DNA of 58,100 nucleotides from a virus. Lineage: Duplodnaviria; Caudoviricetes. A program made the position numbers and the translations under genes. Positions 11,338 through 40,499 of the stretch are shown here, piece by piece. How positions within the stretch are numbered: the stretch's first letter is position 1; the number at the start of each line of letters is the position of its first letter. The stretch lies in IMG/VR virus record IMGVR_UViG_3300030433_000606, positions 1 to 58,100 of that record. The stretch is one strand, 5' to 3'. The notes under the pieces were generated by a model. It saw only the letters and a list, made by a program, of their open reading frames with translations, made no database searches and was not told where the DNA came from.

Positions 11338-12602
11338 TGGTTGGTGGTCCCGAAGGTAGCACCGCTGGACTGCGATTCAATCCTCGACAAAGTGCTGAAG
11401 AGTTGGAAGACGATTCTAGCGTTGGTCGCGAAGATTCAGAAGAGCGTGCCAAGCATGAGGCTAAGAAGCGCGAAGAACAGGAAAAGCGTGCTAAAAAATT
11501 GCATGGTATTCAACACATGAAAATCAAAATCCCTCAGAAAAACCCCGAAGATGAGGAAGATAGTCAAGTGAAACAACAGGCTGAACTTGCTCAAATGACA
11601 GGACAGGTCGGTCAAAACGAGGCTAACGCAGGTGGTAATCCAAATGCTAGCGGATTAGGTTCTAACATTCTTTTGTCAACAACAGATTACATTGACGATG
11701 CGTTTGAGATGATTCGCAAAAAGAAGAATGAGCCGAAATATGATACAGACAAACCACAGAAAACCACTACTATTGAAACTGTAAGAGCGCGCGAAAGAGC
11801 AAAAACAGGGAAGAAGCGTAAAGCGAAAAAGAATGTTAGAGTCGAGTCCATCAAAAGGAGAAGAAGGAAGAAGGGTAGCGGTGTGCCACTGAAAGCGGGG
11901 AATGTACGCCAACCCGGAATTGCTGCTACTATGTCTGCGGCTCGCGCACCTTATGCTTCATTCGGTGGAGGTTACACTTACAGGCAAAGAACCGCGCCTG
12001 TAAGACTCACCACTTCAACAGGGCGTTCTAGGGCAAAAGCCTCCTATGAGAATCCTAGAGAGCGTGAAGCAGAAGCGATGAGGCAGCAACAAAGGCAGAA
12101 TCAGCCAACACAGGATGTAACACCGCCTATCCCAACAGTCACCCCTACTGCAAGAATACCACGCGCGGTTAGAGGGTCAAGAGATTCTAAGCCACATAAA
12201 AAGGCTACTAGGCAACCAAGAACTGCGGCAACACCGGGTGGTGCTGAAGCCGCGAAGGACATATCCCTTGCTGGTGGTCGTGCTTCTGCTATGGCCGCTG
12301 GTGGTATCGGCTCAAGCGATTCAATTCTTGCGTCTGAAGAGTTTATCAGAAAGGGCAAGTTGAACCAACGCGATAAGATAGAATATCGTCAATTGATAGA
12401 CCAACTCAACCATCTATTGCGTCGATTGATGCGTAAAGAGGATAAGTCGATGCAGGGTGCTGATGAGAAATCGTCACCTAACTCATCGGGTGGCCTTTCA
12501 TCTAATCCAACAGGGGCTACTGATGTGGACCCCGATGATGATGCTACACGATGGGGCGCACATCCTTATGACTTGTATGTAAGACGAGGTGGTATAGGTT
12601 GA
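11334..12602 (+). CDS. Low-complexity protein with acidic and highly basic segments
   Basis: 422-aa ORF with overlapping start/stop; K/R-rich centre (KRRRRKKG). Confidence 0.7.
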   Translation: MMVGGPEGSTAGLRFNPRQSAEELEDDSSVGREDSEERAKHEAKKREEQEKRAKKLHGIQHMKIKIPQKNPEDEEDSQVKQQAELAQMTGQVGQNEANAGGNPNASGLGSNILLSTTDYIDDAFEMIRKKKNEPKYDTDKPQKTTTIETVRARERAKTGKKRKAKKNVRVESIKRRRRKKGSGVPLKAGNVRQPGIAATMSAARAPYASFGGGYTYRQRTAPVRLTTSTGRSRAKASYENPREREAEAMRQQQRQNQPTQDVTPPIPTVTPTARIPRAVRGSRDSKPHKKATRQPRTAATPGGAEAAKDISLAGGRASAMAAGGIGSSDSILASEEFIRKGKLNQRDKIEYRQLIDQLNHLLRRLMRKEDKSMQGADEKSSPNSSGGLSSNPTGATDVDPDDDATRWGAHPYDLYVRRGGIG

Positions 12603-13081
12603 AACAGGATTGGTGGGTTTTGTTAAAAGCGCGTGGCGCGCCTAAAAGAAGGGAAGAGTTGCGGAGAATAGCCGATACATTTTACGATGATGAGGAACCA
12701 TCATACAGCGAGAAAAGACTTGCGACATTAGCGCGACATTCTGATGAGTTGGCGCAAACGATTGGTGAACAGACAGGTAAACCCGCGCACAAATACAAAG
12801 ATAAGGTGCAAGTCGTAGCGAGAGAAGGTTACGACACTCCGCAATTCAAAGATAATGTGGCGAGAGTTACTTATCAAAGAGAAAGAAGGCCGAGTCCGGG
12901 TAACAAAAATGATAATCCGTGGAGTGAAGACGGAATTAAAGATATACGCTTCTTAGGTGACGCTCGTAATCCATATTCTAAGTATGATGAACTGAGTCAA
13001 ATAATGCCGAAAGAGCCGGAATACAATCTTGAAGATGACGAAGAGTTCCTTGAAAATATGAGAAGGATGGGGTTAGATTGA
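12599..13081 (+). CDS. Hypothetical protein with W-x-x-L-K leader
   Basis: TTGA coupling on both sides; begins MKQDWWVLLKA. Confidence 0.7.
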   Translation: MKQDWWVLLKARGAPKRREELRRIADTFYDDEEPSYSEKRLATLARHSDELAQTIGEQTGKPAHKYKDKVQVVAREGYDTPQFKDNVARVTYQRERRPSPGNKNDNPWSEDGIKDIRFLGDARNPYSKYDELSQIMPKEPEYNLEDDEEFLENMRRMGLD

Positions 13082-14910
13082 GCGATATAATTCTCAAGGG
13101 TAAGGGTGTTTGGTATCACGATGTCGAGGGTAAGTATGGTCCGCCGGGTAAGCACCACGCCATGTCATTTCCACCGCGACATTCAGACCACACCAAGCAC
13201 AGTCATTTCCACATCAACAGTTTAACAGGTGAACTGTTTGATAATTTGAGCGAAAGAGTGTTGAATAAATGGCCTATGGAAATCGCTGCTAACATAGTCG
13301 CTTCTGATATGATGAAGAATGGTTACAAAGACGAAAGCGGTGCGCAAAGATACCCTGCTAGTGAAGGTAGCGCGCAAAGATTAGCAAGAGATTTTTTTAA
13401 CGAAGCAACAATGATGTTCAACGCGACAAAAAGAAGTTCGGGGGATGATTTCAATATTTTACCACTCCCTTTCGGCAGAGATGGTAGTTTACATTCTGAA
13501 TACAAAAACAATCACTATGGCGGTCATCAAGGTCGTCGCGTGCCTACATCAGAAAGAACCGTGAGAACTAATGATGGTAAGTTGATTAACAACCATGCGC
13601 GAAATGAAGCACATCCAACATTAGGTCAACACCTTGAATCAGCCGCGCTTCACGCTGATAAGGAACTCAGAGAAGTGTTCAAGAAAAGAAATGTGCAAAC
13701 TTCAATAGGCGCGAAACAGAATGTAATTGAACCCGGTCAAATTACTGACGGGTTAACTTACAGAGTTACTTCAAATGAGAAAGACCCTACACAACCGGGT
13801 CGCACTAAAATGACGCGTGATTCAAAAAGATTACACGGAGAAAGTGCTGCGTATGGCAAGATAACGCCTATGGATATTGTTTCAGTTTTACCAAATGACT
13901 TCTTCGTACCTTCATCATCGGGAAACATGTCAACAAGAATTATGAATCAACTAATGGAGAGAGGTTACGACCAACCAACCGCGAGAGCGATGGCTCGCGC
14001 ACCTGTTAATCAATTACTATTCGGTAGCGGTAAAGACGGTAGGGCATCGGGTTTGCGAAAAGTCATGAAAAACATGAGAGCCGCGTTACAGATAGAAAAC
14101 CCCGAAGTGAATGACATCTATTTAGACCACAAAAGCCATGTCGCTTCAGATGTAGGTGATGATGATAACGGGAGAACTAATGCTACTATTGAAATCTTGG
14201 CTATGTTGAAAACTGCTGAAACATTAGGTATAGATATGAACGCTATGTCAATGTTCCCGACTGCACCAAAGAGTGTTGTTAGTGGATGGAAAGATGTCGC
14301 GTTAACAAGTGGTGGTAAGCAGATTGACTTAGACGCGCTAGGTAGCGTGGACCAAAGACACTTCATGCACGACAATTATAGCGAAGAGACAGACCACTTA
14401 CATCAATCATTCCCCGATTATCTTAGCGGTGGTAGCACGACTGATATGTCACAGAAACCAAAGCCTGTCGCGGAAGACCCAATGAGTGACTTACCACCAA
14501 CAGTTTCAACTCAAGAACCGTTAGCACAAGACCCACTAGGGCCTCTAGGCGGTAGTGCTAATGTGCAGGGTGCGTATGAGCAGCCTTCATTTAGTTACGA
14601 CCCTAATCTCGGTTTTTCTCCCGGTGACTTTGATTTCAGATATTCAGATGATGACCCGATGGGTGTTATCGCGACCATAATGGAACGCGTGCAGTTGCAC
14701 GACGCGGGTGGTTCTTTGATTACAAAGTTCGACCCAAACGATTCTTACGATATGCAAAAATTAAGTCAAGAAGTAGGCATGTCGAGTATTGATGTGCGCG
14801 CTATCGCGATGAGTGTAGGAGATTGGGCTATTATAGCGAAATCCTTTAACACTACACATGATGTGGTTCGCGCTATCAAGAGGTCTTGCGGGGGCATCAT
14901 TTATGGTTGA
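13078..14910 (+). CDS. Hypothetical protein (610 aa), possible head-associated
   Basis: Long ORF beginning MSDIILKG. Confidence 0.75.
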   Translation: MSDIILKGKGVWYHDVEGKYGPPGKHHAMSFPPRHSDHTKHSHFHINSLTGELFDNLSERVLNKWPMEIAANIVASDMMKNGYKDESGAQRYPASEGSAQRLARDFFNEATMMFNATKRSSGDDFNILPLPFGRDGSLHSEYKNNHYGGHQGRRVPTSERTVRTNDGKLINNHARNEAHPTLGQHLESAALHADKELREVFKKRNVQTSIGAKQNVIEPGQITDGLTYRVTSNEKDPTQPGRTKMTRDSKRLHGESAAYGKITPMDIVSVLPNDFFVPSSSGNMSTRIMNQLMERGYDQPTARAMARAPVNQLLFGSGKDGRASGLRKVMKNMRAALQIENPEVNDIYLDHKSHVASDVGDDDNGRTNATIEILAMLKTAETLGIDMNAMSMFPTAPKSVVSGWKDVALTSGGKQIDLDALGSVDQRHFMHDNYSEETDHLHQSFPDYLSGGSTTDMSQKPKPVAEDPMSDLPPTVSTQEPLAQDPLGPLGGSANVQGAYEQPSFSYDPNLGFSPGDFDFRYSDDDPMGVIATIMERVQLHDAGGSLITKFDPNDSYDMQKLSQEVGMSSIDVRAIAMSVGDWAIIAKSFNTTHDVVRAIKRSCGGIIYG

Positions 14911-16570
14911 AATGTGGGAATTAGAATGGAATAGTAGTATGATGCAACACGGTGTTGACATGGGTACTATGGAGTTTATCTTCGCGAAAGGTGGCACACT
15001 GAAAGATTTCAATTATGTTATGTTAGATACTAATGATGACACTTGGGAACCGCTTATCAAGGCTGTCGCGGAACGCGAAAACTCCCATCCCGACATTATC
15101 CGTAAGAATGTTCCGGGTGTTCCTGCTAATGCCGCACCGGGCTTTTTTGGAGTACCCGATACTTACAGACCCGCTGTTCAAATGCAAATGAACCCCGTTG
15201 ACGGTCATAATTATACTGTTGCGGCGCAAAACAGAAAACAAGCGCGAGAATTACTTGCTGCGCAAAGAGTTGCGGAAGCAGACCGAAGATTGTATAATGC
15301 ACAACAAGCAGGTGAAAGACCGAGGATTCGCGACTTAGCACAAACAGGTCAAAAAGGCGCGGCACTAGGGCAAGGACTCAAAGATGTTGGTAACATAGGG
15401 CTTGGTTTGGCTGCTGGTGGCGCGTATGGATTAGGTTCTGCTTTGGGTATGACTCAAGGAGGTCGCGAAGCATATGGCAAGTTTGGTCGAGGTGTTGTTG
15501 ACGCTGGTAAGGCTGCTGGTGGTTATTTAGCGCGGAAGTTCCCCGGTGTCAAAGATAGAATGGGTCGCTTCATGCAAGGCATCAAGGCAGCACCGGGTGC
15601 GTTCAAAGATTACATGGGCGAGAGAAGAGATTTGAGAGAAGGGCGCGCTAGAAGAGAGTTATTAGAAAGCGGTGCTAGCAGACGACAAGATTACAGCAAC
15701 AGGATGGTTCCCGGCTCTGAAGGTTACGACCAACAAATGAAGAATTACGATAGAGGTATGATGCAAAGATACTTCCCCGATGGTTTACCTAAATACCCCG
15801 AAGGTCATGAGAAGGCGGGTCAAACGATGACTGTTGATGATGCTTTGCGAAGTGAGATTTCTGATATTGGTACACAACAAGCCAATCGCAGAGGATTCCG
15901 CGGCGCGCTTAGGGATAGGATGGACCCCGGAGTTGATGTATCAGTGGAAGGAATTGATATTGATGAACCACTAGCAGGTGTCTCTGACCCTATGCTCGAT
16001 GCTGATGCAACACCACCCGAAGCCGAAGAAGCACCAAGCAGCGTGACATTCACATCCAAACCCGAAGAAGAAGCACCGCCGGAAACTCAAGCAGGGCCAC
16101 CTACACCTGTTGAACCGGATGTAGCCGAAGTTACTGAGCCGGAGATGGATGACCCTGCTATCGCTTTTGGTGATGAAATGGCTGGATTAGCAGGTTACAA
16201 ATCCGGTGGTTCGCGTAGGAAAGCCGCAGAAATAGCGCGAGGTATGTTCGATAACAAACCCGCGAGTTACGAAGAAATTGTAGCAGCAACAGGTAAAGCA
16301 GGTTATAGGTCGAAGTTAGCAAACGCGATTGCGGAATATCACGGTATATCGCCAACACAAGCCGTACAAGTAGTACAAGCAGCGGATGCGGGCAATCCAC
16401 AAGCGCAAGAGGTTGTCGAAGAGGCGGCTAACAAATCACCAATATCATTTGAGTCTAAGCCCGATGACGATGACGATGAAGACCCTGTTGGTGCTGGATT
16501 GATGGAGTTGTCCGAAGATAAGCACCACGCGAGTTGGGATTCGCTATTGAAAGGGTTGAACATAAGGTGA
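14903..16570 (+). CDS. Hypothetical protein, G/A-rich middle and acidic P-rich tail
   Basis: ATG 14903 (MVEMWELEW); ends ASWDSLLKGLNIR. Confidence 0.75.
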   Translation: MVEMWELEWNSSMMQHGVDMGTMEFIFAKGGTLKDFNYVMLDTNDDTWEPLIKAVAERENSHPDIIRKNVPGVPANAAPGFFGVPDTYRPAVQMQMNPVDGHNYTVAAQNRKQARELLAAQRVAEADRRLYNAQQAGERPRIRDLAQTGQKGAALGQGLKDVGNIGLGLAAGGAYGLGSALGMTQGGREAYGKFGRGVVDAGKAAGGYLARKFPGVKDRMGRFMQGIKAAPGAFKDYMGERRDLREGRARRELLESGASRRQDYSNRMVPGSEGYDQQMKNYDRGMMQRYFPDGLPKYPEGHEKAGQTMTVDDALRSEISDIGTQQANRRGFRGALRDRMDPGVDVSVEGIDIDEPLAGVSDPMLDADATPPEAEEAPSSVTFTSKPEEEAPPETQAGPPTPVEPDVAEVTEPEMDDPAIAFGDEMAGLAGYKSGGSRRKAAEIARGMFDNKPASYEEIVAATGKAGYRSKLANAIAEYHGISPTQAVQVVQAADAGNPQAQEVVEEAANKSPISFESKPDDDDDEDPVGAGLMELSEDKHHASWDSLLKGLNIR

Positions 16571-16574: not shown

Positions 16575-17975
16575 GTGCAGCAATTATCCCTTGAAGCAAT
16601 CGAAGAAATCGACTTTGAAGTAGCGAAGCGTGACTTCAAGTTCTTCTTTGAAGAGATTCTTGGGTTTCAATTATCACACCACCACGAAAGATGGTATAAC
16701 AATCTTGAGAAACGCAAGCGATATTGTGTAAAAGCAGCGCGTGACCACGGTAAGTCAACGCTGTTTCTCGGCTATATGCTATGGAAAACTGCATTCAATC
16801 CAAAGACCAAAGCAGTATTGATTTCACACAGTCTGCATCAGTCTATACACCACATGCGAACACTGAATGATTTAATCGACGGTGTGCCATTCCTTGCTAA
16901 AATGAAGAAGCCGGATAGTTGGTCTAAAACATTCTTCGGTTTTTCTAATGGTTCTAACATTAGCGCGAAATCAGTGGGTGGTGCTATTCGTGGTATTCAC
17001 CCCGATTTGATTCTTTGCGACGACATTCTGTGGGGTACTACCGATACAGAACTTGCTCGCGTTGCATCGTGGTTTTACGAAGTTCTCGTACCGACACTTC
17101 ACCACACATCTAAACTGATGATAGTTGGTACACCGTTTACACCTACTGACCTTTACACTGAACTAGAAAGTCGTGACGGTTATCTTGTTGAAACATATCC
17201 CGCGATAAACGCTCAAGGTGTAGCACTATGGCCGGAGCGATGGGACCTAGAATCATTGGATGCGCGCAGGGCAGATATGCCAGCGATTGCGTTTGCTCGC
17301 GAATATCTGTGTGAACCAATGGACGATGTATCAAGTCTATTCCCTTCAACTATCCTACAAGCCGCGAAAGATAGTACACTCAAAATTATTGAGCGTGAAG
17401 TTGGTGACCCCGACGACCAATACTTCATCGGTTGGGACCCTGCTATTTCGAGTGACCGCGCAGCAGACTACACAGTTATGGTAGTGCTTCGTCGCCCATC
17501 CACTAACCCCGAATTGCTTGAATTAGTTCATGCTGTGCGCCGTAAGAATATGGACTTCCGCACACAAATCATGGAGATTCAGCGTTTGAATGCAAAGTTC
17601 AATCCCGATGTAATTGAACTTGAGGCTAACAACTTCCAGCGTGTTTTCGCGACTGAATTACGCGCTGATACTGACCTTCCTATCAAGACATTCATTTCCA
17701 CACGCCAACGCCGTGAGTCGCTTCTCATGGGTTTGGTGTTACGCTTTGAGAAAGAGCAGATTCGTTTGCCGTGGGGAGATGACCGTTCACGCACGCTCAT
17801 GTCTGAACTTGAGCGAGAATTGCTTATGTTCGGTATGAGTAAGAAGGGTCGCCTTGATAGCATTGGGCGACACGATGACTTTGCTATCGCGTTAGCGTTA
17901 GCACATTGGGCTACTACCGAGTTCCGCGAGCGCATTGTGGACTTAGACGAAGTTATGGCGGGGTTGTTAGATTGA
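16575..17975 (+). CDS. terL: Terminase large subunit
   Basis: Walker A AARDHGKST, Walker B LILCDD, coupling motif VGTP, RNase H-like nuclease IGWDPA and C-terminal HDD; AGGTGA RBS. Confidence 0.95.
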   Translation: MQQLSLEAIEEIDFEVAKRDFKFFFEEILGFQLSHHHERWYNNLEKRKRYCVKAARDHGKSTLFLGYMLWKTAFNPKTKAVLISHSLHQSIHHMRTLNDLIDGVPFLAKMKKPDSWSKTFFGFSNGSNISAKSVGGAIRGIHPDLILCDDILWGTTDTELARVASWFYEVLVPTLHHTSKLMIVGTPFTPTDLYTELESRDGYLVETYPAINAQGVALWPERWDLESLDARRADMPAIAFAREYLCEPMDDVSSLFPSTILQAAKDSTLKIIEREVGDPDDQYFIGWDPAISSDRAADYTVMVVLRRPSTNPELLELVHAVRRKNMDFRTQIMEIQRLNAKFNPDVIELEANNFQRVFATELRADTDLPIKTFISTRQRRESLLMGLVLRFEKEQIRLPWGDDRSRTLMSELERELLMFGMSKKGRLDSIGRHDDFAIALALAHWATTEFRERIVDLDEVMAGLLD

Positions 17976-18247
17976 GCGATTGGTGGGTTGTTCTAAAAGA
18001 GGGGCGCGAAGTTCAATGCCCTAAATGTAAACGCATGTTTTATGGTGAAAATGCTTTACAGAACCACCATTGCATAGATGCTAACACAGATTACAGTCAA
18101 GAATTAACACCCCAAGAAAATACAGATATGTATGATTTTTTGGGTAAGTTTGGTTTGAATGTTACACAAGGTGATGAAAGTTGTCCCGCGTGTAAAGGCA
18201 AAGGAATGATAGAGGGTGACCCTTGTCCTCTTTGTAGGGGTGGTTGA
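17972..18247 (+). CDS. Small zinc-finger protein with leader MSDWWVVLK
   Basis: TTG 17972 overlaps the terL stop; CPKC...HHC and DnaJ-like CPACKGKG...CPLCRGG. Confidence 0.7.
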   Translation: MSDWWVVLKEGREVQCPKCKRMFYGENALQNHHCIDANTDYSQELTPQENTDMYDFLGKFGLNVTQGDESCPACKGKGMIEGDPCPLCRGG

Positions 18248-18248
18248 A

Positions 18249-18449
18249 ATGACTGATTGTAATTGTGAGTTTTGTGTAGGTACTGAAGCGGCTTTTGGTT
18301 ATCTTGAGAAGAAGTTATGTCCGGCTGGTAAAGCAGCAGCGAAGCGTAAGTTCAAAGTTTATCCAAGCGCGTATGCAAATGGTTGGGCTGTTCAATACTG
18401 TCGCGGCAAGTTCCGTGGTAAAAAGAAGAAGGGAGGCAAGAAGAAGTGA
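18249..18449 (+). CDS. Small basic protein (KRKFKVYPSAYAN family)
   Basis: ATG 18249 with GGTGG RBS; motif CPAGKAAAKRKFKVYPSAYANGWAVQYC recalled from marine phage proteins; K-rich tail. Confidence 0.7.
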   Translation: MTDCNCEFCVGTEAAFGYLEKKLCPAGKAAAKRKFKVYPSAYANGWAVQYCRGKFRGKKKKGGKKK

Positions 18450-19195
18450 ATCCTTTCAAAAAAGCGTGGGATATAATCAAGAATATCATTGAAGATGAAC
18501 ACCACCCGGCTCATAATGTCCCCATTGCGTATGATATGCATGGTAATCCTATCAAGCCACATACCGACGAGTTTACGAGAACTATGGCGGATGTAGGTAA
18601 CAACTGCCCGTATTGTGATGAGGGTCAAATATTGCATAGATGGGATGGCGCAGAGGGATGTACGCAAGAAGATTGTATCGCCAATACACCGGATGTAATG
18701 CAGTCGCGTACTGATAGACCTATGGGTAGGAATGGTGACTTTGTACCTGCGCGGATTAAAGAAGTGGGTAAAGTTTATCCAACTAAAACCAAATCAAGAA
18801 TAGTTGACCCATTAGAAGGTGTGCAATTTTTAGATGAGAATATGCGCAATGATGAAAGGAATCAACCTTATGTTGAAATCACTCCGAATGTTAGACAGGA
18901 TAATATTGTTCAACGATTAGGGTACAAAGATGAGATGCCTCCTAGTTACGCGTATGGTCCGGGTCACCCCGACCTTCGCGCCGGAGAAGAAATGAAAGTT
19001 CTTGAAGATGCGTGGGCTTTGATGAAAGCCAAGAAGGACGCACCTAATTACAGAAAAGCCACAGGCTCAAAGAAGTGTGGTAACTGTAAAGCGTGGGATG
19101 ATTCTGCGACAGATGACCCAAAGACGGGTTATTGTAAGTGGTATGATTTCAATTGCCACGAAGATTATACTTGTGATGCATGGGCTGGTAATTGA
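18446..19195 (+). CDS. Two-module protein with two leaders and a C-terminal HiPIP-like Cys domain
   Basis: MNPFKKAWDIIK at start; internal GGAG plus ATG 18992 (MKVLEDAWALMK) followed by CGNC..W..GYC..C..TCDAW. Confidence 0.7.
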   Translation: MNPFKKAWDIIKNIIEDEHHPAHNVPIAYDMHGNPIKPHTDEFTRTMADVGNNCPYCDEGQILHRWDGAEGCTQEDCIANTPDVMQSRTDRPMGRNGDFVPARIKEVGKVYPTKTKSRIVDPLEGVQFLDENMRNDERNQPYVEITPNVRQDNIVQRLGYKDEMPPSYAYGPGHPDLRAGEEMKVLEDAWALMKAKKDAPNYRKATGSKKCGNCKAWDDSATDDPKTGYCKWYDFNCHEDYTCDAWAGN

Positions 19196-19869
19196 TGGTG
19201 GAAAAGAATCTGAACCGTTGGTTCAAGGAGAAGTGGGTGGATGTTTCCCGCAAAAACAAGGATGGGTCACATCCTCCGTGTGGGCGAAGCAAAGCCAAGA
19301 CTTCTTCAAAGGGTTATCCAAAATGTCGTCCATCTGTCAAAGTGTCAAGTAAAACTCCAAAGACATCCGGCTCTATGTCGGAAGGTCAAAAGCGCGCGGC
19401 TACAAAACGAAAACGCAGTAAAAAACAAGGAGTGGGCGGTAAGCCGACGGTGGTGAAGATGGAATACGAATACATAGAACATGAGCCAATAACGGCAGAA
19501 GAATTAGCAATGATGACGGATGACGACATCGCGAAACAAGTAACATTTTGTTCGTGCTGCTCTCCGTTTGACATAGCAACTACTGTGCTAAAAGCAAAGA
19601 AGAAGAGTAAACCATTTCATGGTTACAATCCTAACAAGCACAGTCGAAAAGGTGGTCTAAACGCTAAAGGTCGTGCTGCTGCAAAGCGTAAGACAGGCGC
19701 GAATCTGAAACCACCTGTTACAACTAAACCTAGCAAACTCAAACCCGGCGGTAAAAAAGCCAAAAGACGCAAATCATTTTGTGCGCGGATGAGTGGTGTT
19801 AAAGGACCGACTTCTAAGAAGGGTAAACTAACACCGAAAGGTGCAGCACTGAAGAGGTGGAATTGTTGA
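19192..19869 (+). CDS. Highly basic two-module protein (DUF5872-/DUF6321-like from memory)
   Basis: LNRWFKEKWVDV...CGRS...YPKCRP module and GGLNAKGR...RRKSFCARM...KRWNC module, separated by an acidic linker. Confidence 0.7.
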   Translation: MMVEKNLNRWFKEKWVDVSRKNKDGSHPPCGRSKAKTSSKGYPKCRPSVKVSSKTPKTSGSMSEGQKRAATKRKRSKKQGVGGKPTVVKMEYEYIEHEPITAEELAMMTDDDIAKQVTFCSCCSPFDIATTVLKAKKKSKPFHGYNPNKHSRKGGLNAKGRAAAKRKTGANLKPPVTTKPSKLKPGGKKAKRRKSFCARMSGVKGPTSKKGKLTPKGAALKRWNC

Positions 19870-19983: not shown

Positions 19984-21375
19984 ATGGTTGAAATACATTC
20001 TTTTTCTGAAATACTGTCGAACAGTATATTGAAAAACACCATACAAGGACCTTCATTTGGTGATGCACCTAGACCCGCGGCTCAAGGTCAAGGAGAAGCA
20101 AACGCTAATCCTACTCCACCCGAAAATAATCAAGATGGTGAGAAAAAGGAAGAGGATAAGATAAAGCAAATAGTTCAACAACAACTCAACCGTTCTCTCC
20201 CCGATGGTGGTTGGTTTCAGTCGATGTTTGGCCGCGGTGCTGGTGACTTAGTTAAGGATTTGAGAATGGCTCGTCGTGAACATAAGGACATGCGCGACGC
20301 TATTGATTATGCTATTGATGCTATCCGTATCGCGAAGAAGCAAGAGGTGGAAGCAACTCTTCAATCAATCGAATGGATTGGTAAGCACGAAGGCACTGTC
20401 CGCAATTTAGGTATTAGCGAGCGCGACTTACAAGCGTTGAGAAAACATGGTAACAATCGCCAATACGCGCTAAGAAGAGCGTGCGTCCAATGGGAGAAGG
20501 CTAATGATACCATTAGCAAACTGTTGCTACTTGAAGGAGATTTCAATGATGAGCAAAGACAGATGTGGGTTGATGCACAACAAATCAAAAAGAATGCGAA
20601 AAAAGAATGGAAAAACGCTTTGCATTCAGTTGATAATATCAAAAAGACAGACGCTATTCATCTAACAAAGGCGGTACAAATACTTGAATCGCGTGGCCCA
20701 TTACCTTCTTCTGAGATTTTCGCTAACATGACGGGTGCTAGAAATCTTTCAAGTTCAAAATTGAGTGCGCTTCTCAAGATGCATGGTGTTGAATATGACA
20801 TTGAGCGCATCGGTAAATCGTGGGGTATCATTAGAGATGATACGGTCATTTTCAAAGATGTGTGGGCTTACGCCGCTGGTTTCCTAGACGCTGATGGTTA
20901 TATCACTATCACAAAGCGTCTTGAACCGCGGGCAGGTTTTATCGCCACAGGTGAAAGAGGTAAGATGCATTGTGAACATTTACACAAGGCTCTTGGGTGT
21001 GGTGTATTACAGACTGATTTGAAGATTCACAAGAATAGCAGAAGGACTCAACACAGGTTACAATTTTACAGTCAAGATGATTTGCGCAAACTGATGAAGG
21101 GAATCAAACCACATTTGCGAATGAAAAAAGGACAGGCTGATGCAGTCCTAGAACTTCTTGATTTGCGCGGTCGTAAAACTGATATTATCAAATCACGCCG
21201 TGATGAATTGTTTCGCATTGTTAAGTGGTTGAATTGGAAAGATGTGCCGGATAAGCGCGAAGAATTACTGAAGGAGTGGAACATTGATGAAGCGGGAGTG
21301 CTTGCGATGTTTAATCGGGACGGCGAAACCCTTCGTCTTGTTGACGACGCTAACCGACTTGTGGAGATGATATAA
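19984..21375 (+). CDS. LAGLIDADG endonuclease-domain protein with N-terminal helical and wHTH-like regions
   Basis: WAYAAGFLDADGYITI motif; upstream AVQILESRGPLPSSEIF...KLSALLK resembles a winged helix. Confidence 0.8.
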   Translation: MVEIHSFSEILSNSILKNTIQGPSFGDAPRPAAQGQGEANANPTPPENNQDGEKKEEDKIKQIVQQQLNRSLPDGGWFQSMFGRGAGDLVKDLRMARREHKDMRDAIDYAIDAIRIAKKQEVEATLQSIEWIGKHEGTVRNLGISERDLQALRKHGNNRQYALRRACVQWEKANDTISKLLLLEGDFNDEQRQMWVDAQQIKKNAKKEWKNALHSVDNIKKTDAIHLTKAVQILESRGPLPSSEIFANMTGARNLSSSKLSALLKMHGVEYDIERIGKSWGIIRDDTVIFKDVWAYAAGFLDADGYITITKRLEPRAGFIATGERGKMHCEHLHKALGCGVLQTDLKIHKNSRRTQHRLQFYSQDDLRKLMKGIKPHLRMKKGQADAVLELLDLRGRKTDIIKSRRDELFRIVKWLNWKDVPDKREELLKEWNIDEAGVLAMFNRDGETLRLVDDANRLVEMI

Positions 21376-23213
21376 TGGCAGAGGAAAAAGGATTGGTAGG
21401 GCGTTTTCTGAGTTCGCTAAGTAAACCGTTCAGAAGGCGTTCAACACCCGAACCTATGATGCCGTTATGGAAAACGGGCATACAAGAACCTGTTCTCGTA
21501 CAAGGCGTTTCAATACCTGCACTTTACGCGACTGTTCAAGAGTCTATTATTTTACGAACTACAATTAACACCCTATGTCAAGAAATCTTCAGACGCGGTT
21601 ACTATTGGGAAAAGAAATATCACAAGAAATGCACAAACTGCGAAGAAGAATATCAACATGATACTGTTACTCAATGTCGCATCTGTGGTAATGAAGAGTT
21701 CGATAGCCCGGACGCAGACCAAATCATGTACCCGCGTTGGTTGCTAAAACAACGCAATAGCATGGACCAATCATTCATCGAGATAATGAAAGAGATAGAA
21801 TGGGATTTGGATATTGTTGATGACGCGTTCTTGTTACTAATCAAAGAATATTTCATTGACCCCGATAGTGGTGAAATAGAGTTCTTCCGAGTCAAAGAGT
21901 TAGTGCGTGGTGACCCTACATTCATGCGCATTGTTGCTGACAAAGCAGGTAAGCGCGGTGGCAGATACCTTTTGTGTCCTATTCATCGTGACAAAACTTA
22001 TCCTCATAACCGCGAGCATAAGAAGTGCGAAGTGTGTTCTCTCCCTCTCCAAGATGTTCATTACATCAATACTGCTGGTAGTGGTAAAACGCAATACTAC
22101 ATTGACGGTGAAGTGTTACACTTGTCTAAGTTCAATCCAACTAAACTGTATGGGCGTTCTCCTGTCGCTAGTATGTGGAGGCAAGCACAGTCTCTTACTG
22201 CGATGGATAATTACATCTATCTTGCATATCAAAAGCGAAGAATCCCACGCGGTGTACTCGCTATTACTACTGATAATATCCAATCGACCGCTTCATTTTG
22301 GAAAGGCGCGGAAGAGAAGATGGAACGCGACCCGCACTATATACCAAAGGTTGGTGTTGAATCTTCATCGGGTCGTGGTAAAGTTGAGTTCGTGCGCTTC
22401 ATGGATAGCCTTGATGAGATGCAGTACGCACAAGTCCGCGATGAGATAAGAATGCGTATAGCGGCTTTCTATGGTGTTTCTAATGTGTTTATGATGGATG
22501 CCGGTAAATCCGGTGGATTGAATAACGAAGGTATGCAGATACTTGTTACTAATCGAGCAGTTGAGTCGGGACAAAAGTTGTATTCACGCGAATTATTCCC
22601 TCGCCTGTTAGAGCAAATGGGTGTTGAAGATTGGTGTTTGACACTATATCCGAATGAAGAAGAAGATGAAATTACACGACTAAGACGCGATGAGCAAGAA
22701 GTGAACATTGCACAAAGAATGCAAGCACTTGGATTCCAACCGGAATTGACAGAAGACGCTGGTCGCGATATACGATTTGTTTACAAGAAACCCGACCCGC
22801 AAGCAGCCATGATGCAACAGGCTGGTGGCGCGGGCGGAATGCCTATGCCACCGGGCGGCGGAATGCCGATGGGTGGCGGTATGACTCCACCTATGCCGCC
22901 GGGGGGCGGCTTACCTCCACAGGGTGCGGGCGCGATGATGCCACCGGGAGTTGGGGCTTCTCCTAGCGGCGGAGCGTCGCCCGGTGGTGGTACACCGATT
23001 ATGATGATGGAAAAAGCAGTAGGGTTGGGTGAAGGAACGGGGCAACGCGATAATGGACCTGCGCCTATTAGTTCTGAAACTCATCAATCCGGCGCGCCTT
23101 CATCCAAAAAGAACCAACGCGGTGCTAAAAAATCACCACTAGAAGAAGCACTTGATAGCATTCAAGCCGCGAAAGACCCTACTTCCAAGCAAAAAGAAAG
23201 TGGTTTCCAATAG
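21375..23213 (+). CDS. Portal protein
   Basis: EVLHLSKFNPTKLYGRSPV, IPRGVL and RIAAFYGVSNVFM motifs typical of HK97-like portals; position after terL. Confidence 0.9.
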   Translation: MAEEKGLVGRFLSSLSKPFRRRSTPEPMMPLWKTGIQEPVLVQGVSIPALYATVQESIILRTTINTLCQEIFRRGYYWEKKYHKKCTNCEEEYQHDTVTQCRICGNEEFDSPDADQIMYPRWLLKQRNSMDQSFIEIMKEIEWDLDIVDDAFLLLIKEYFIDPDSGEIEFFRVKELVRGDPTFMRIVADKAGKRGGRYLLCPIHRDKTYPHNREHKKCEVCSLPLQDVHYINTAGSGKTQYYIDGEVLHLSKFNPTKLYGRSPVASMWRQAQSLTAMDNYIYLAYQKRRIPRGVLAITTDNIQSTASFWKGAEEKMERDPHYIPKVGVESSSGRGKVEFVRFMDSLDEMQYAQVRDEIRMRIAAFYGVSNVFMMDAGKSGGLNNEGMQILVTNRAVESGQKLYSRELFPRLLEQMGVEDWCLTLYPNEEEDEITRLRRDEQEVNIAQRMQALGFQPELTEDAGRDIRFVYKKPDPQAAMMQQAGGAGGMPMPPGGGMPMGGGMTPPMPPGGGLPPQGAGAMMPPGVGASPSGGASPGGGTPIMMMEKAVGLGEGTGQRDNGPAPISSETHQSGAPSSKKNQRGAKKSPLEEALDSIQAAKDPTSKQKESGFQ

Positions 23214-30285: not shown

Positions 30286-30303
30286 GAATTGTCGCGAAGA
30301 GCA

Positions 30304-31743
30304 ATGGCGATTCTCGCAGCACCGAGTATTTCATCCGACCCTGTTATTTTGAAGGGTATTGGTGATGACCTTGTTGTTGCAGGTTACGCTTCCGTCGAAA
30401 TGGTTGACAAGCAGGGTGACTTAATCACTCGTAGTGCTTTGAAAGATGCTTTTGGCAAGTTTATGAAAGCAGATGGATTCCGCAATGTTCAACTCGCACA
30501 CTCCAATATACAGGTAGGAACTGTAATTCCTTCTTACACGGACTCATCCGGCAGAATGTGGAAGTCCGAAGTTGATGACACAGGTATGTTTGTTGTCATC
30601 AAACTAAGAGGCGACATAGAGAAGGCACGCGAAGTGGCTTCTGAAATCCGAAAGGGCAACCTTCGGTCGTTCTCAATAGGCGGTCAAGCCTTTGAGCGCG
30701 TCAATAAGAGCGACCAAACTCGCGGAGATTACCGCGAGATTCGTCGTATGGAACTCCATGAGGTTACAATTTGTGAGAAAGGGATTAACCCCGAAGCACA
30801 GTTTCGTATTCTCAAGGAAGATAATGGTGATACCATGACGAACACAATGACTGAATTGCAAAGCGTCCTTGAGCGTCTATCTAAGAAATTAGACGATAAG
30901 GATGACAAGAAAGACAATGAAGAGAAGGATGCGGCAATGGATGTTGACGACTCCAAGAAGAAAAAGGATAACGAAGAGAAGGATGCGGGCGATTTGGGTC
31001 CATTAGACCCGGATGACGACGGCAAACCCGGACCTTTCGATAAACCTAAGAAAACTCCACGCGACGAAGAAGAAGATGATGACGAGTCGATGGAAGACAT
31101 GATGTACGGTGAGGACATGACAAACAAAGCAGACGATATGATAACAACAGACTATCTTGCTTGGTTGGAGCAAACCGCTAAGGGTGCTGGTTTTGACCCA
31201 CTAGCGGCTCGCGACCACTTCAGCAAGGGATATGGACCGGGCGAATCCGCCTTCGATATGAGAGGACAGGGTTCACTTGAAGGTGCAGGTGAAGACGACT
31301 CCGGCAAGAGGCCGCAACCAAACTTTGGTTCCGCACCTACCGGAAACAAGAATGTCATTAAGGGAGATTACCTTAATGCATCCAATGTTTCACCTAGCGA
31401 AATTGAAGCAGCATATGAAGTATTCAAGGCTGCGGCACAAGAGCAGAACTTCAAGGCTGACCTAAACAACCACTTTACCGAGAGATTCCTAAAAGAATCT
31501 AAGGCTGAAGCAGATGCAATCGCGAAGCAGAACTTCGATTCTCGCGGACCACTTGTTGAATTGCAGAAAGCAGTATTAGCACTTAACGAGAGGATTGACA
31601 ATGTTTCATCCTCTTCTGAAACTATCGCAAAGTCCGCTGGACGCGCGACAGTAACTATTCCCGAAACCGCTGAACTAGCAAACATGTCATGGGACGATGT
31701 TCACAGACTTGCTGGCAAAGCGTTGAACGGAGGTGACATCTGA
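30304..31743 (+). CDS. Prohead (maturation) protease, HK97 family, fused to a scaffolding domain
   Basis: VAGYASVEMVDKQGDLI, QLAHS (His), RSFSIGG (Ser), LHEVTIC; acidic/coiled-coil C-terminal half; directly upstream of the capsid gene. Confidence 0.9.
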   Translation: MAILAAPSISSDPVILKGIGDDLVVAGYASVEMVDKQGDLITRSALKDAFGKFMKADGFRNVQLAHSNIQVGTVIPSYTDSSGRMWKSEVDDTGMFVVIKLRGDIEKAREVASEIRKGNLRSFSIGGQAFERVNKSDQTRGDYREIRRMELHEVTICEKGINPEAQFRILKEDNGDTMTNTMTELQSVLERLSKKLDDKDDKKDNEEKDAAMDVDDSKKKKDNEEKDAGDLGPLDPDDDGKPGPFDKPKKTPRDEEEDDDESMEDMMYGEDMTNKADDMITTDYLAWLEQTAKGAGFDPLAARDHFSKGYGPGESAFDMRGQGSLEGAGEDDSGKRPQPNFGSAPTGNKNVIKGDYLNASNVSPSEIEAAYEVFKAAAQEQNFKADLNNHFTERFLKESKAEADAIAKQNFDSRGPLVELQKAVLALNERIDNVSSSSETIAKSAGRATVTIPETAELANMSWDDVHRLAGKALNGGDI

Positions 31744-32882
31744 TGGCACGAAACTATGTACGAACAGTTCAAGACATGGAGAGATACTACTACGGTGGGG
31801 CATCCCAAACAGGCTACACATATGGCGCAGGTGACATTCTGAAGGCAGACGCGCCTTTGATGTCAACTACCGCTGGAACATACCAAGCGATTTACGGACG
31901 AAAGGTTTGGTCGCAGTTGAACCAAGAGTTCAATGCGTTCAGCATTCTTCCTAAGAAGCCGTGGGAGCGAAGTGGTTGGAGAATCCTAACCGAGCGCGCT
32001 TCCTTCACTAAGGGTGGCGGTATTGCTGAGAACGGTACACTACCGGACACCAGCAGACCGGAGTTCCTACATGTTGCAGCAAAGCCAAAGACTGTTGCTC
32101 ACACCTTCGACCTATCCGAAGTTAGCATGTTCCTATCCGACAAGGATGACGGACTTGGTGATGTTAGGCAGGTTCTAAAAGAGGAAATGGGTAAGCATCA
32201 CGCGGAGCATATCAACAGAATGCTTCTTGAAGATGTTGACACTCCTGTCGGTAACGACTTTGAATCTCTTGACAGACTAACTTCTGACCCGGATAAGATG
32301 ACAACAGGTACAGGCCATGTAAGCGCAACCACTGACCACGACATCTATTCTATCACTCGCGACGGTAGTGCAGCATTCCACAGTGCTGAAGTCGATGTCG
32401 CAAGTTCTAACAGAAACTTGTCATTGAATCAAATGGATGGATTATTCCAACAACTATGGACCCGTGGTGGTAACCCGAAGGTTATGCTAACAGGGTATGA
32501 CACACTAATGCGTGTTCAGCAACTACTACAATCTCAGCAGAGATTCATGGATAGCAAGCGCGTAACCCCAACATACAACGGTGTGAAGGGTGTACCGGGT
32601 CTTGAGGCTGGATTCATTGTAGCAACATACAACGGTGTTCCAATGATTCCAACAAAGGACATGCCGGACGAGGGTGCAAGCACTCTATCGCGTATCTATT
32701 ACTTAGACACAGATTACTTGTGGTTCCAAACCGCAATTCCAACACAATACTTTGAAAGTGGTATTGAAACAGGTGACCCATTCGCGATTAACCGTCTAGG
32801 ACAAGAGGGGCTTTACAGAACTATGGGAGAACTATGGTGTTCTTTCTTTGGTGCTAGTGGTAGCATTCGCGACTTACAATGA
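31743..32882 (+). CDS. Major capsid protein (HK97 fold)
   Basis: GGAGGTGA RBS, 379 aa, after the protease; GGGIAENGTLP, EHINRMLL..D and YNGVPMIP patterns. Confidence 0.9.
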   Translation: MARNYVRTVQDMERYYYGGASQTGYTYGAGDILKADAPLMSTTAGTYQAIYGRKVWSQLNQEFNAFSILPKKPWERSGWRILTERASFTKGGGIAENGTLPDTSRPEFLHVAAKPKTVAHTFDLSEVSMFLSDKDDGLGDVRQVLKEEMGKHHAEHINRMLLEDVDTPVGNDFESLDRLTSDPDKMTTGTGHVSATTDHDIYSITRDGSAAFHSAEVDVASSNRNLSLNQMDGLFQQLWTRGGNPKVMLTGYDTLMRVQQLLQSQQRFMDSKRVTPTYNGVKGVPGLEAGFIVATYNGVPMIPTKDMPDEGASTLSRIYYLDTDYLWFQTAIPTQYFESGIETGDPFAINRLGQEGLYRTMGELWCSFFGASGSIRDLQ

Positions 32883-33301: not shown

Positions 33302-33302
33302 G

Positions 33303-34136: not shown

Positions 34137-34403
34137 ATGGACTTGAAAGAACTGAAACGGCTTGAAAAGCAAGGCTGGAAGAAGGCCGAAGAGTCAATGG
34201 TTAAGACCGATGAGCGCGACAAACTCAAAGGTGTAATGAAGCGTCAAAATATGAAGACGCGCAACATCCGCGATATTGTCAACATCGGTAGTGGTACGCG
34301 TTGTCGCTTCTGCGGTATGCTTCACTTCTGTTATCTTGAAAGATGCGGGGCTTGTAAGAAGCCTATGCATTACAATCTCGCGAAAACCGAAGAGGTGATT
34401 TGA
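34137..34403 (+). CDS. Zinc-ribbon protein
   Basis: GGGTGA RBS before ATG 34137; CRFCG...CGAC. Confidence 0.7.
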   Translation: MDLKELKRLEKQGWKKAEESMVKTDERDKLKGVMKRQNMKTRNIRDIVNIGSGTRCRFCGMLHFCYLERCGACKKPMHYNLAKTEEVI

Positions 34404-34753
34404 TGAGTGTGTTTGAGAAAGCGTGGCGAATACTGAAAATGACACCCGAAGAGATGGAGGCCGCGGGCTTCCATGAAGCGGCTGCTCAGATGCGTCAAAT
34501 GCAAGAAGAAGAAGCACGAATCAGACAACAAACTCAAGCCACAGCACCACAGATGACACCACAGATTCAAGCAAATTACCAAGACCAAATTGACTTGAAA
34601 AGGCAGAAAGAGTTGGATGCACAACAGATTCGTCGAGTCACAAGTGGTGGCAGAATCAATAGCAGAGAGGCTAAAGAGTTGCTGCAAGCGTATAGAAAGA
34701 AGTATGGTGAAGACCCTCCAAGAGTGTCTAAAACATTAAGGAGGCGTTCATAG
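34403..34753 (+). CDS. Leader-bearing hypothetical protein (MSVFEKAWRILK)
   Basis: GAGGTGA RBS, TGATG overlap, Q-rich. Confidence 0.7.
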   Translation: MSVFEKAWRILKMTPEEMEAAGFHEAAAQMRQMQEEEARIRQQTQATAPQMTPQIQANYQDQIDLKRQKELDAQQIRRVTSGGRINSREAKELLQAYRKKYGEDPPRVSKTLRRRS

Positions 34754-36337: not shown

Positions 36338-36658
36338 ATGAACCCAATGAAAGAAGCATGGAACCTTTTGAAAGGTATGAATCCGATGGATGACCCACGA
36401 ATACAGGCGCATAGACATATACCTGCTACTGTTAGTGCTGTGAATACAACTCGGAGTCGAGTGAGGCGGGGGATGAAACCCGGAGATATAGTTTATCAAC
36501 AACAAGTAAAACGCGAGCGTCGTCCCTCCGCCGGCCCACCGAAGTATGGAGGGTATCAAACAAACGCTCCTTTGACACAAACGCGACGGTTTAAGCATAC
36601 AGGCCGCGAAGGACCTGCGAATGTTCTTACACAACTAGGCGAAGATAAGTTTGAGTGA
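36338..36658 (+). CDS. Leader-bearing basic protein (MNPMKEAWNLLK)
   Basis: R-rich 106-aa ORF between neck genes. Confidence 0.7.
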   Translation: MNPMKEAWNLLKGMNPMDDPRIQAHRHIPATVSAVNTTRSRVRRGMKPGDIVYQQQVKRERRPSAGPPKYGGYQTNAPLTQTRRFKHTGREGPANVLTQLGEDKFE

Positions 36659-37365: not shown

Positions 37366-37384
37366 AATAAGCGGAGAGAATAAC

Positions 37385-39316: not shown

Positions 39317-39325
39317 GGTGATTGA

Positions 39326-40024
39326 ATGAATCCGATGAATGAAGCATGGTTGTTACTAAAAGAGAATGTCGCGACAACACACACTGAATACAACGACCAT
39401 ATGCCGGAAATTAAACCACACCCTGCGGCTGTATCATATGCTCAAAAACCTATGAGGGCTATGGCTCCCGGTCAAGAAGGTACACTAATGAATGTTGGAG
39501 GCGCGCAAAAACCAAACGCGCCACCTATGATGGGTCAAGGTCAAGGTCCATTACCGGGGCGTAAGATACAACTTATGCCGCGACCTAAACCGCCACAAGG
39601 CACATCGAAAACAGTGAATATGCAACAACTTGGATTAGACCCGGACATGGGTAAGCCCGGTAAAAGAAGTGGGCGAGAGATGATGGACTTTGAAGAAATT
39701 ATGGACACCGCTGAAGACGCGGGTAAACATATTTACCAACACAACGCGCGTGAGTTGGAACGCTCAAAGGATAGATTTAGAGGTCTTCCTCGTTCTGTAC
39801 GCGAGGCTAACTTAGGTAATCGTGAAACCGGCATAGGTGATAACATGGGCTTCCACACAGGCGAAGGAACGCTGGTTCCTGTTGTGCAACCGTTAGGAGA
39901 TTTAGACCAATTAGACCGATTAGACCCTGCTACAAAACGAAGCAGAATGGCTAATAGACCTAAACCCGACCATATGGAAAAACTGAACTTAAAGAGAGAA
40001 TTAGAAAGGAAGGGTAAAAGATGA
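39326..40024 (+). CDS. Leader-bearing hypothetical protein (MNPMNEAWLLLK)
   Basis: GAGGTGA RBS; P/G/M-rich, probably disordered. Confidence 0.7.
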   Translation: MNPMNEAWLLLKENVATTHTEYNDHMPEIKPHPAAVSYAQKPMRAMAPGQEGTLMNVGGAQKPNAPPMMGQGQGPLPGRKIQLMPRPKPPQGTSKTVNMQQLGLDPDMGKPGKRSGREMMDFEEIMDTAEDAGKHIYQHNARELERSKDRFRGLPRSVREANLGNRETGIGDNMGFHTGEGTLVPVVQPLGDLDQLDRLDPATKRSRMANRPKPDHMEKLNLKRELERKGKR

Positions 40025-40161
40025 ATCCGTTTAGAGAAAGTTGGGGAGAATTATTGAAGGGAAGTATGTGCAAAGGCGATGACTGTAAAGGTTGTCGCGG
40101 TTGCAAAGCGTGTTCCGAATGCAAAGGCAAAGGCTCAACTTGTGAGAAATCGGGGTGTTAA
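40021..40161 (+). CDS. Leader-bearing 46-aa Cys-rich metallothionein-like peptide (not in ORF track)
   Basis: ATGA overlap; MNPFRESWGELLKGSMCKGDDCKGCRGCKACSECKGKGSTCEKSGC, 8 Cys. Confidence 0.75.
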   Translation: MNPFRESWGELLKGSMCKGDDCKGCRGCKACSECKGKGSTCEKSGC

Positions 40162-40163
40162 TT

Positions 40164-40499
40164 ATGAACCCTATGAATGAGGCATGGACTTTGCTGAAAG
40201 GCAAGATGTCAAACATAGACCTTATCGCGCGTGAATCTAAATCTATACAAGAAGCAATGGAATCAATGAAAGAAGATTTTCCCGACATGAGTGATGAAGA
40301 GGCAATGAACATGCTTATGCAAGCAAGCAAAGCACATTCCTTAGACAAAAACCGTCCACCCGACAATTACATGGGGTTACTAGGTGATGCACCGGAGTTC
40401 GCTAATGTTGACAGTTCAGAACAGGATATGATGAGGCTAATGCCGAACACCAATCTAGTACACCAATCCGGTAACTTACCAAAAGGAGATGATGAATGA
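40164..40499 (+). CDS. Leader-bearing acidic protein (MNPMNEAWTLLK)
   Basis: GGGGTG RBS, ATG 40164. Confidence 0.7.
   Translation: MNPMNEAWTLLKGKMSNIDLIARESKSIQEAMESMKEDFPDMSDEEAMNMLMQASKAHSLDKNRPPDNYMGLLGDAPEFANVDSSEQDMMRLMPNTNLVHQSGNLPKGDDE

Follow-up and report, generated by a model that had tools for sequence, protein, structure and literature searches.

The capsid targeting sequence (CTS) of bacteriophage T4 is strictly N-terminal and is removed by the protease gp21 after a Glu residue. Encapsulin cargo peptides are short, lie at the C- or N-terminus of diverse cargo, bind the lumenal face of an HK97-fold shell and are retained, and in the staphylococcal phage 80alpha the capsid and scaffold proteins share an N-terminal motif that the host protease Prp removes during assembly. 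The internal proteins of T4 are described as a diverse set in which only the CTS is conserved (PMC3012670). In phage P1, DarB's 30 N-terminal residues are reported to suffice for capsid targeting, including that of a reporter (PMC9024508), and Dar proteins lie on the inner capsid surface (PMC12810830), while the HK97 protease is described as cutting at K103/S104 (PMC10275583). Here we analyse a 12-residue peptide, hereafter the tag, that recurs on unrelated proteins encoded by the IMG/VR virus record IMGVR_UViG_3300030433_000606. The stretch analysed ("the window", 58,100 nucleotides) is the whole 58.1-kb record and represents the structural arm of a magrovirus-like virus.

Magroviruses are tailed viruses of marine group II archaea, described as among the most abundant archaeal viruses of the surface ocean, with most of their genes lacking an assigned function (PMC5434244). 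We found no description of such a peptide in the article text of three magrovirus papers (PMC5434244, PMC10160649 and PMC11706807), supplementary gene tables aside, or through a full-text search for tag strings: 'motif' is absent from the text of PMC5434244, both 'motif' and 'N-terminal' are absent from that of PMC10160649, and in that of PMC11706807 'motif' refers to helix-turn-helix only. A preliminary description of the window, made from its letters alone, had read the peptide as an N-terminal leader that loads a variable set of cargo proteins into the procapsid. The underlying observation is confirmed and substantially extended by the analysis that follows; the interpretation finds partial support and needs correcting in that the peptide is more than an N-terminal leader.

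A short peptide recurs on unrelated proteins

Among the copies that contain the conserved Trp, six are canonical and N-terminal (those starting at 18446, 34403, 36338, 39326, 40021 and 40164), two are degenerate and one is internal; a C-terminal copy comes in addition. The canonical form in the window reads [M]-N-P-[MFLI]-x-x-[AS]-W-x-x-L-K. The copies are listed below, with bit scores from the profile introduced in the next paragraphs.

12599..12628, + strand: degenerate tag (M)KQDWWVLLK at the N-terminus of the 160-aa open reading frame (ORF) 12599-13081; below the profile threshold
16529..16567, + strand: C-terminal copy ASWDSLLKGLNIR, followed by the stop codon, at the end of the 570-aa protein 14858-16570, directly upstream of the large terminase gene (TerL)
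17972..17998, + strand: degenerate tag (M)SDWWVVLK at the N-terminus of the 91-aa zinc-finger protein 17972-18247
18446..18481, + strand: N-terminal tag (M)NPFKKAWDIIK of a Cys-rich 249-aa protein (18446-19195) that starts with GTG; 11.9 bits
18992..19027, + strand: internal second copy MKVLEDAWALMK at residue 183 of the same 249-aa protein 18446-19195; weak by profile, 4.4 bits
34403..34438, + strand: tag MSVFEKAWRILK at the N-terminus of the 116-aa protein 34403-34753; profile match
36338..36373, + strand: N-terminal tag MNPMKEAWNLLK of a basic 106-aa protein (36338-36658); 19.5 bits; slot empty in many relatives
39326..39361, + strand: tag MNPMNEAWLLLK at the N-terminus of the 232-aa protein 39326-40024; 20.9 bits
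40021..40059, + strand: tag variant MNPFRESWGELLK, with one extra residue after the Trp, in the 46-aa Cys-rich mini-protein 40021-40161; 8.5 bits
40164..40199, + strand: N-terminal tag MNPMNEAWTLLK of an acidic 111-aa protein (40164-40499); 24.6 bits

All nine Trp-containing copies listed in the preliminary description are present where it had placed them. Its two supposed variants without Trp, DDAFEMIRK (11688-11720) and EAAFGYLEK (18279-18311), did not hold up: neither is detected by the profile, and the first is kept only in the nearest relative. Both degenerate copies begin with a TTG that overlaps the preceding stop codon as TTGA, which for 17972 is the stop codon of TerL, and the 17972 protein gives a weak DnaJ CXXCXGXG match (22.9 bits, below the Pfam cut-off of 32.7).

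The motif had been expected to be more frequent at N-termini than in shuffled controls, and it is. W-x-x-[LIVM]-K falls within the first 16 residues of 5 of the 39 genes called on the + strand, against 0.09 expected, and none of 2000 residue shuffles reached five N-terminal occurrences; the gene-start count is an undercount, as the crude gene caller missed 36338 and 40021. A profile built from 143 regex-defined copies was run on all stop-to-stop frames of 2.13 Mb of sequence, comprising the window, the fetched loci and three whole relatives. It returned 306 matches of at least 10 bits, 5 of them inside the window, versus a single match in residue-shuffled frames. Chance as the origin of the motif is rejected by this control together with the residue shuffles, and scanning related genomes revealed the many variable carriers that had been anticipated.

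Overlapping fetched loci were reduced to distinct contexts by de-duplication on a 37-residue window, and matches below 10 bits were dropped from the context count, those below 12 bits from the consensus, clustering, codon, composition and ribosome-binding analyses. This gave 185 distinct contexts, within which, as within the 155 tagged ORFs discussed below, three 'KRAANPMWAAW' contexts and one other remain that are seemingly unrelated. The motif is N-terminal in 142 contexts, so that the term leader fits most copies; it fails for the 15 that are C-terminal, with 0-7 residues after the motif, and for the 28 that are internal. Since copies are also internal and C-terminal, a translation-start artefact is rejected.

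A Shine-Dalgarno-like sequence (GGTG, GAGG, GGAG or AGGT) lies 4-18 nt upstream of 83 of the 104 copies that have a start codon at position -7, compared with 12 of 57 other copies and 520 of 3000 random in-frame positions (17%); the N-terminal copies are therefore true translation starts. In 152 distinct DNA copies, every synonymous codon is in use for the conserved Pro, Ala, Leu and Lys, at frequencies that are roughly those of the genome (Pro: CCA 65, CCG 43, CCT 30, CCC 9; Ala: GCA 63, GCT 46, GCG 31; Leu: six codons). Because the conserved residues vary synonymously, a DNA-level cause, be it a recombination site or boundary, a promoter or an RNA element at gene starts, is excluded, and selection acts on the peptide and not on the DNA.

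Masking the motif and clustering the 155 tagged ORFs (at least 12 bits) by BLAST yielded 76 clusters, 49 of them singletons, which places one short peptide on at least 76 otherwise unrelated families, with 5-15 tagged genes per genome. Complete ORFs number 148; their lengths run from 36 to 941 aa, with a median of about 140, their products span strongly acidic to strongly basic proteins, and 27 have at least two CxxC pairs. That the sequences downstream of the tag share nothing, as had been proposed, is borne out by Pfam, PHROGs and this clustering.

Predicted anatomy of the tag

The consensus is [M/G/S]-[N/E]-P-[M/I/L/F]-[D/E/N]-x-A-W-x-[L/V/F/I]-L-K, in which Met occupies the first position in 55% of copies, Asn the second in 68% and Met the fourth in 63%. 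Numbered from the Trp, hydrophobic residues stand at positions -4, -1, 0, +2 and +3, Pro stands at -5, and a further Pro is found at +7 in 25% of copies. Internal and C-terminal copies share an extended upstream pattern, hydrophobic-x-[R/K/T]-[G/S]-[N/E/D]-P-M, as in I-F-R-R-G-N-P-M-D-I-A-W-R-L-L-K. In the structure model of the 34403 protein, the tag forms a short helix (residues 3-11) with a break before Pro15. The tag is thus predicted to be an amphipathic helix of about 10 residues, begun by Asn/Glu-Pro and often ended by a Pro three residues past the Lys; with its hydrophobic face, Pro start and end and modelled helix, it would have the anatomy of a helix-in-groove docking motif. A sequence search of the PDB with the tag alignment gave no match at E values up to 10.

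One homologue of the 34403-34753 protein (P0133) is 91% identical to it apart from the absence of precisely the six tag core residues K-A-W-R-I-L, which reflects either loss of the tag or an assembly error. The clearest C-terminal copies are found in magrovirus fragments (L098, L102, L142, L147 and L152) that carry tandem zinc-finger genes with paired Cys-x-x-C, DnaJ-type CxxCxGxG by eye, whose products end F-x-R-[GS]-N-P-M-D-I-A-W-R-L-L-K-H-[GD] before the stop.

The tag is restricted to the late arm of one virus lineage

The genes of the window lie nearly all on the + strand, and a Pfam scan recognised the following structural genes.

16575..17975, + strand: large terminase (TerL), Pfam Terminase_6N/6C
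21375..23213, + strand: probable portal protein, Pfam Phage_portal at 36.9 bits, slightly below the Pfam cut-off of 39.1
30289..31743, + strand: 484-aa protein, an S78 prohead protease fused to a helical scaffold domain, PF04586 at 38.5 bits against a cut-off of 21
31743..32882, + strand: major capsid protein (MCP) of HK97/SU10 type, Pfam PF17236
37385-39316: tail-tube-like protein, Pfam

The MCP is 33.4-34.4% identical to those of the haloviruses HCTV-1, HVTV-1 and HCTV-5, and deposited phages give no closer match. This is exactly how magroviruses are described, with an MCP 33% identical to those of haloarchaeal siphoviruses (PMC5434244, Philosof et al. 2017). More than 600 IMG/VR stretches encode near relatives of the window MCP. 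We fetched three whole relatives, G001 (106.9 kb, with terminal repeats), G002 (102.9 kb) and G003 (91 kb), each of which has one arm in the gene order of the window and a second arm in the opposite orientation. Genes for DNA polymerase B, for helicases of the SF2 and SNF2 types and for a chaperonin lie on the second arm of G001, whose MCP is 82% identical to that of the window. Magroviruses have genomes of about 100 kb with structural and archaeal-type replication blocks; G001 has both arms and the window the structural one only. These results identify the window as the late, morphogenetic arm of a tailed virus of archaea that is magrovirus-like.

In the three whole relatives, 25 profile matches fall in the structural arm and one in the other arm, the latter spurious (10.6 bits, in a 25-residue frame). 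Structural arms make up 66% of this sequence, and by our own arithmetic 25 of 25 matches there would have p ~3e-5 under a uniform spread, showing that the motif is restricted to the late arm.

A degenerate-pattern scan of IMG/VR, independent of homology, hit 95 stretches, of which 80 were examined. These held 96 matches, 63 of them directly after a start codon, and homologues of window proteins were present in 56 of the 80 loci. Five records seemed unrelated; three of them hold a magrovirus MCP and two are fragments, 35% and 43% complete. About a dozen of the 96 matches look like chance, and the plausible ones lie in magrovirus contigs. Scanning one genome per species from 185,579 prokaryotic species with a slightly narrower pattern gave 15 matches, about the chance level, and the only two real ones were magrovirus fragments mis-binned into metagenome-assembled genomes (MAGs). 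The motif is thereby shown to be specific to this virus lineage, and mimicry of a host motif is rejected for the narrow pattern, which leaves out other motif variants.

MAGs labelled Methanobacteriota and Parvibaculum contain magrovirus fragments (L194 and L206), and copies of the MCP appear in public records under bacterial names (Luminiphilus, Phenylobacterium and Alteromonadaceae); such labels are likely the result of mis-binning. Three giant ORFs also stand out in the window: 190-7032 (2280 aa), 24301-30285 (1994 aa) and 44338-58098, which exceeds 4587 aa and is cut off by the end of the window. Pfam gave no match for the first two, and at the place of the 2280-aa ORF the relatives G001 and G003 encode several smaller proteins that bear the tag. 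Lying between TerL and the portal, a conserved protein of 463 aa (19984-21375) has no Pfam match and contains a LAGLIDADG-like stretch by eye (GFLDADGYITI). In its replication arm, G001 (L085:17329-18669) has a gene for a 447-aa protein that combines an N-terminal GmrSD domain with an HNH domain; this type of nuclease is known as a host defence against modified phage DNA.

Tagged genes form a variable accessory set

Tagged genes are found largely in slots of hypervariable content that separate conserved genes of the head and tail, and three such slots hold 0-3 tagged genes each. The loci with at least one tagged gene were counted for each slot, some of these loci being near-duplicates.

MCP to g34753: 35 of 55 loci (one doubtful)
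g34753 to g36925: 17 of 42 loci; in 21 others an empty gap of 253-289 bp
tail tube to tape measure protein (TMP): 18 of 21 loci

Slot content varies even among relatives whose MCPs are at least 90% identical, in keeping with the variable cargo set of the preliminary description, and the tagged genes are a variable accessory set. The protein encoded just upstream of TerL, whose C-terminal tag copy is kept in all four genomes compared, evolves fast: it is 33% identical between the window and G002, where TerL is 96% identical. The 40164 protein has only 8 homologues in 5.8 billion proteins, and a second tagged family has 11, versus 1610 for the MCP. Where neighbouring tagged genes have fused, the tag is retained at the joint; the 40021 mini-protein family, for example, recurs between tube and TMP in relatives, and in some of them it is joined to the upstream protein, the tag being kept where the two meet.

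A very basic protein with DUF5872 and DUF6321 (19192-19869; also 18216-18449) is untagged in the window, and relatives from the same family (L103, L104 and L148) begin with the tag, indicating that it comes and goes within one family. Among the tagged genes between tail tube and tape measure lies an untagged 136-aa SAP-domain (DNA-binding) protein (40496-40906).

A candidate partner in the procapsid

The preliminary description had assumed a capsid-assembly setting, and the same virus indeed encodes an HK97-type capsid module together with the prohead protease-scaffold fusion. The identity of the protease is supported by its family profile above cut-off and by an assemblin-like fold: the AlphaFold model shows a folded domain (residues ~19-161) followed by the long helices expected of a scaffold, and its best PDB matches are T4 gp21 (5jbl, E 4.9e-4) and then the herpesvirus proteases, or assemblins. 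The protease-scaffold is a candidate receptor for the tag, a candidate enzyme for its processing, or both. A conserved peptide stands in its linker:

30784..30816, + strand: INPEAQFRILK, between the protease and scaffold domains; predicted local distance difference test score (pLDDT) below 50 for residues 164-186

Eight of its 11 residues are invariant in an alignment of 22 sequences, and it may be a self-cleavage or docking site. In the MCP, L-K-A-D (residues 33-36) is invariant within G-D-I-L-K-A-D-A-P, near the N-terminus.

A second shared peptide, M-S-W-[DE]-[DE]-[IV]-H-x-[LM]-A, occurs at the C-terminus of the protease-scaffold (31684-31740) and at 23871-23939, near the C-terminus of a 116-aa protein (23592-23942) encoded downstream of the portal. 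In three of four genomes these two proteins, and no others, carry it; the small protein of G001 has M-D-W-S-D-I-H instead. The peptide probably forms the end by which two scaffold-like proteins bind the capsid.

Complex prediction with a 40-residue tag alignment against the MCP and the protease-scaffold, run without controls, scored 0.00 in both runs with partner pLDDT below 50, and speaks neither for nor against binding.

A docking tag as the tentative explanation

We posit that the tag is a portable short linear motif that magroviruses put on many unrelated, fast-turnover, mostly small proteins of the late arm, and that it would dock these proteins onto one common viral partner during assembly. 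A motif that works at either end or inside a protein, on unrelated carriers, among late genes only and in one lineage points to such a single partner in virion assembly. The procapsid interior, whether protease-scaffold or MCP, is the leading candidate because of the HK97-type shell, the protease-scaffold fusion and the pattern of the T4 internal proteins. Docked proteins would then be packaged and delivered with the DNA, in the manner of T4 internal proteins, P1 DarB and encapsulin cargo. Docking would depend neither on a free N-terminus nor on cleavage. In N-terminal and internal tags, the S78 protease may make a cut following the terminal Leu-Lys, a step that is weakly suggested. Taken as a whole, a docking tag with the procapsid interior as its likeliest partner and with packaging and delivery to follow is a tentative reading, which we place somewhat short of an even chance. 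Within it, the procapsid is the leading guess for the partner, and packaging of the tagged proteins is a step that we infer by analogy.

Several observations weigh against this proposal. HVTV-1, the closest cultured relative, has no such motif in its 41-kb structural region, so that no experimental system carries the tag. Neither Pfam nor PHROGs gave a match above cut-offs for the tagged proteins, with only weak zinc-finger matches, and their functions accordingly give no hint. The seed regex fixed P, [AS], W and [LIVM]K, and the near-invariance of those positions is partly built in, although a scan with a looser pattern gave the same picture. By eye, the linker peptide of the protease-scaffold resembles the tag (N-P-x-x-x-aromatic-R-[IL]-L-K), yet the tag profile does not detect it; as a tag copy it is unsupported and is kept as a lead only. 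C-terminal copies are followed by no more than 7 residues, so that leader removal after the Lys is not a general mechanism and cleavage appears dispensable for the main function of the tag. Tagged genes lie also in the tail part of the module and past the giant tail gene. Finally, the conserved C-terminal peptide of the scaffold, M-S-W-D-D-V-H-R-L-A, is a different motif, and the tag therefore probably uses another site or partner than the capsid-binding site of the scaffold.

These last two observations would also fit a common partner other than the capsid interior, such as the tail, the baseplate, the terminase, a conserved late protein, the viral chaperonin or a host protein, with the tag bringing accessory late proteins to an assembly site or host target and no packaging at all. 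Tagged genes in the tube-to-TMP slot as well as near the head genes are consistent with this, as is the tag copy that ends the gene directly upstream of TerL. Known tail and fibre anchors, however, are whole domains and not 12-residue helices, and the lack of host-genome copies with the narrow pattern leaves no sign that a host motif is mimicked. That relatives encode a chaperonin (G001; PMC5434244) counts for this reading; against it, only 12 of the 26 magroviruses counted in PMC5434244 have one. We judge a partner outside the capsid interior to be unlikely, though it deserves to be kept in view.

The tags could instead bind each other or a multivalent hub, so that disordered tagged proteins co-assemble into a body or condensate, either an inner body of the head or a compartment of the cell. 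Some proteins do have two or three copies, namely three for a protein of 747 aa in G003 and one at each terminus for several others. Disorder-promoting residues are also frequent in tagged proteins (median 0.59, versus 0.51 in 8 core proteins). The 39326 protein, for which an Atlas search returned nothing usable, is probably disordered, judging from an Atlas model with a pLDDT of 0.47. Most tagged proteins, however, have a single copy, and a 9-residue helix is short for self-association, which makes co-assembly of this kind improbable.

We give similarly little credence to the possibility that the tag is mainly a recognition and cleavage site of the S78 protease (hydrophobic-Leu-Lys, then the cut), marking propeptides and polyprotein joints, so that docking would amount to enzyme-substrate binding. 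The related HK97 protease is described as cutting after Lys103 (PMC10275583), and internal copies of the tag sit at the joints of fused modules. Conserved sites of the hydrophobic-hydrophobic-Lys type are present in the linker of the protease-scaffold (FRILK) and in the N-terminal region of the MCP (DILK, in GDILK-ADAP), with a weaker NVIK in a low-confidence stretch of the scaffold. Against this, such tripeptides number 4 by eye in the protease-scaffold where about 2 are expected by a rough hand count, which is not above expectation; C-terminal copies would lose only their last few residues, and 12 conserved helical residues far exceed a usual protease site.

Less probable still is an amphipathic membrane-targeting helix, as in MinD or FtsA, that would bring late proteins to the cell membrane for assembly or egress: the tag is short, amphipathic, usable at either terminus and equipped with Trp and Lys, but membrane-binding helices tolerate wide sequence variation, whereas here Pro, Ala, Trp, Leu and Lys are near-invariant in at least 76 families, which points to stereospecific recognition, and the tag is short and often includes an acidic residue. 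We regard as very improbable an export or peptide-modification leader of the double-glycine bacteriocin or RiPP (ribosomally synthesised and post-translationally modified peptide) type, even for the Cys-rich mini-proteins alone, since, although a conserved leader with hypervariable Cys-rich cores of 36-56 aa does recur (the 40021 family), most tagged proteins have 100-940 aa, copies are also internal and C-terminal, and the 30 window ORFs that were scanned include no recognisable transporter or modifying enzyme.

Returning to the docking tag, a stronger version would be a plug-and-play system in which any protein that gains the 12-residue Pro-capped Trp helix, terminally or internally, is taken up into the procapsid through the protease-scaffold or the lumen of the capsid and enters the archaeal host together with the DNA. 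We consider this possible but doubtful. Were it true, the virus would hold in its hypervariable tagged genes an arsenal of proteins to inject for counter-defence or takeover; archaeal viruses would have yielded their first capsid-loading code, and the tag could serve as a ready-made label for loading HK97-type shells. Loading of the capsid by the tag would mean that T4-style delivery of diverse pre-made proteins exists in archaeal viruses too, through a different code, and proteins could be packed into HK97-fold shells by means of a signal that is compact and independent of position. If the tag binds another hub, it still defines a previously unnoticed network of assembly or host takeover. One tag on so many genes and families gathers a large share of magrovirus dark matter into one functional class, and it offers a direct experimental handle.

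Comparison with known systems

As with the T4 CTS, a short peptide is found on unrelated, hypervariable accessory proteins of a tailed virus with a prohead protease and scaffold. The two differ in that the magrovirus tag is not confined to N-termini, and that any cut would follow Lys and not Glu; the host here is archaeal, and the protease belongs to S78 and not to the T4 gp21 family, though the folds match. The 80alpha motif copies a host ribosomal-protein propeptide, whereas here no host copies were found with the narrow pattern and the carriers are more numerous and more diverse. With encapsulins the tag shares its place at the termini of candidate cargo, encoded here in the same arm as the SU10/HK97 MCP, just as encapsulin cargo lies beside an HK97-fold shell gene; encapsulin peptides, however, are extended and Gly/Leu-rich and not a Trp helix, and encapsulins are cellular compartments without DNA. 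In P1, an N-terminal signal of at most ~30 residues is reported to be enough for a large anti-restriction protein to enter an HK97-type head (PMC9024508), but this signal is described for one protein, with stepwise loading via DarA and Hdf, where here one tag serves 5-15 proteins per genome. Provided that the docking-tag reading holds, the tag would in function most resemble the T4 CTS, the P1 DarB signal and the encapsulin cargo peptides.

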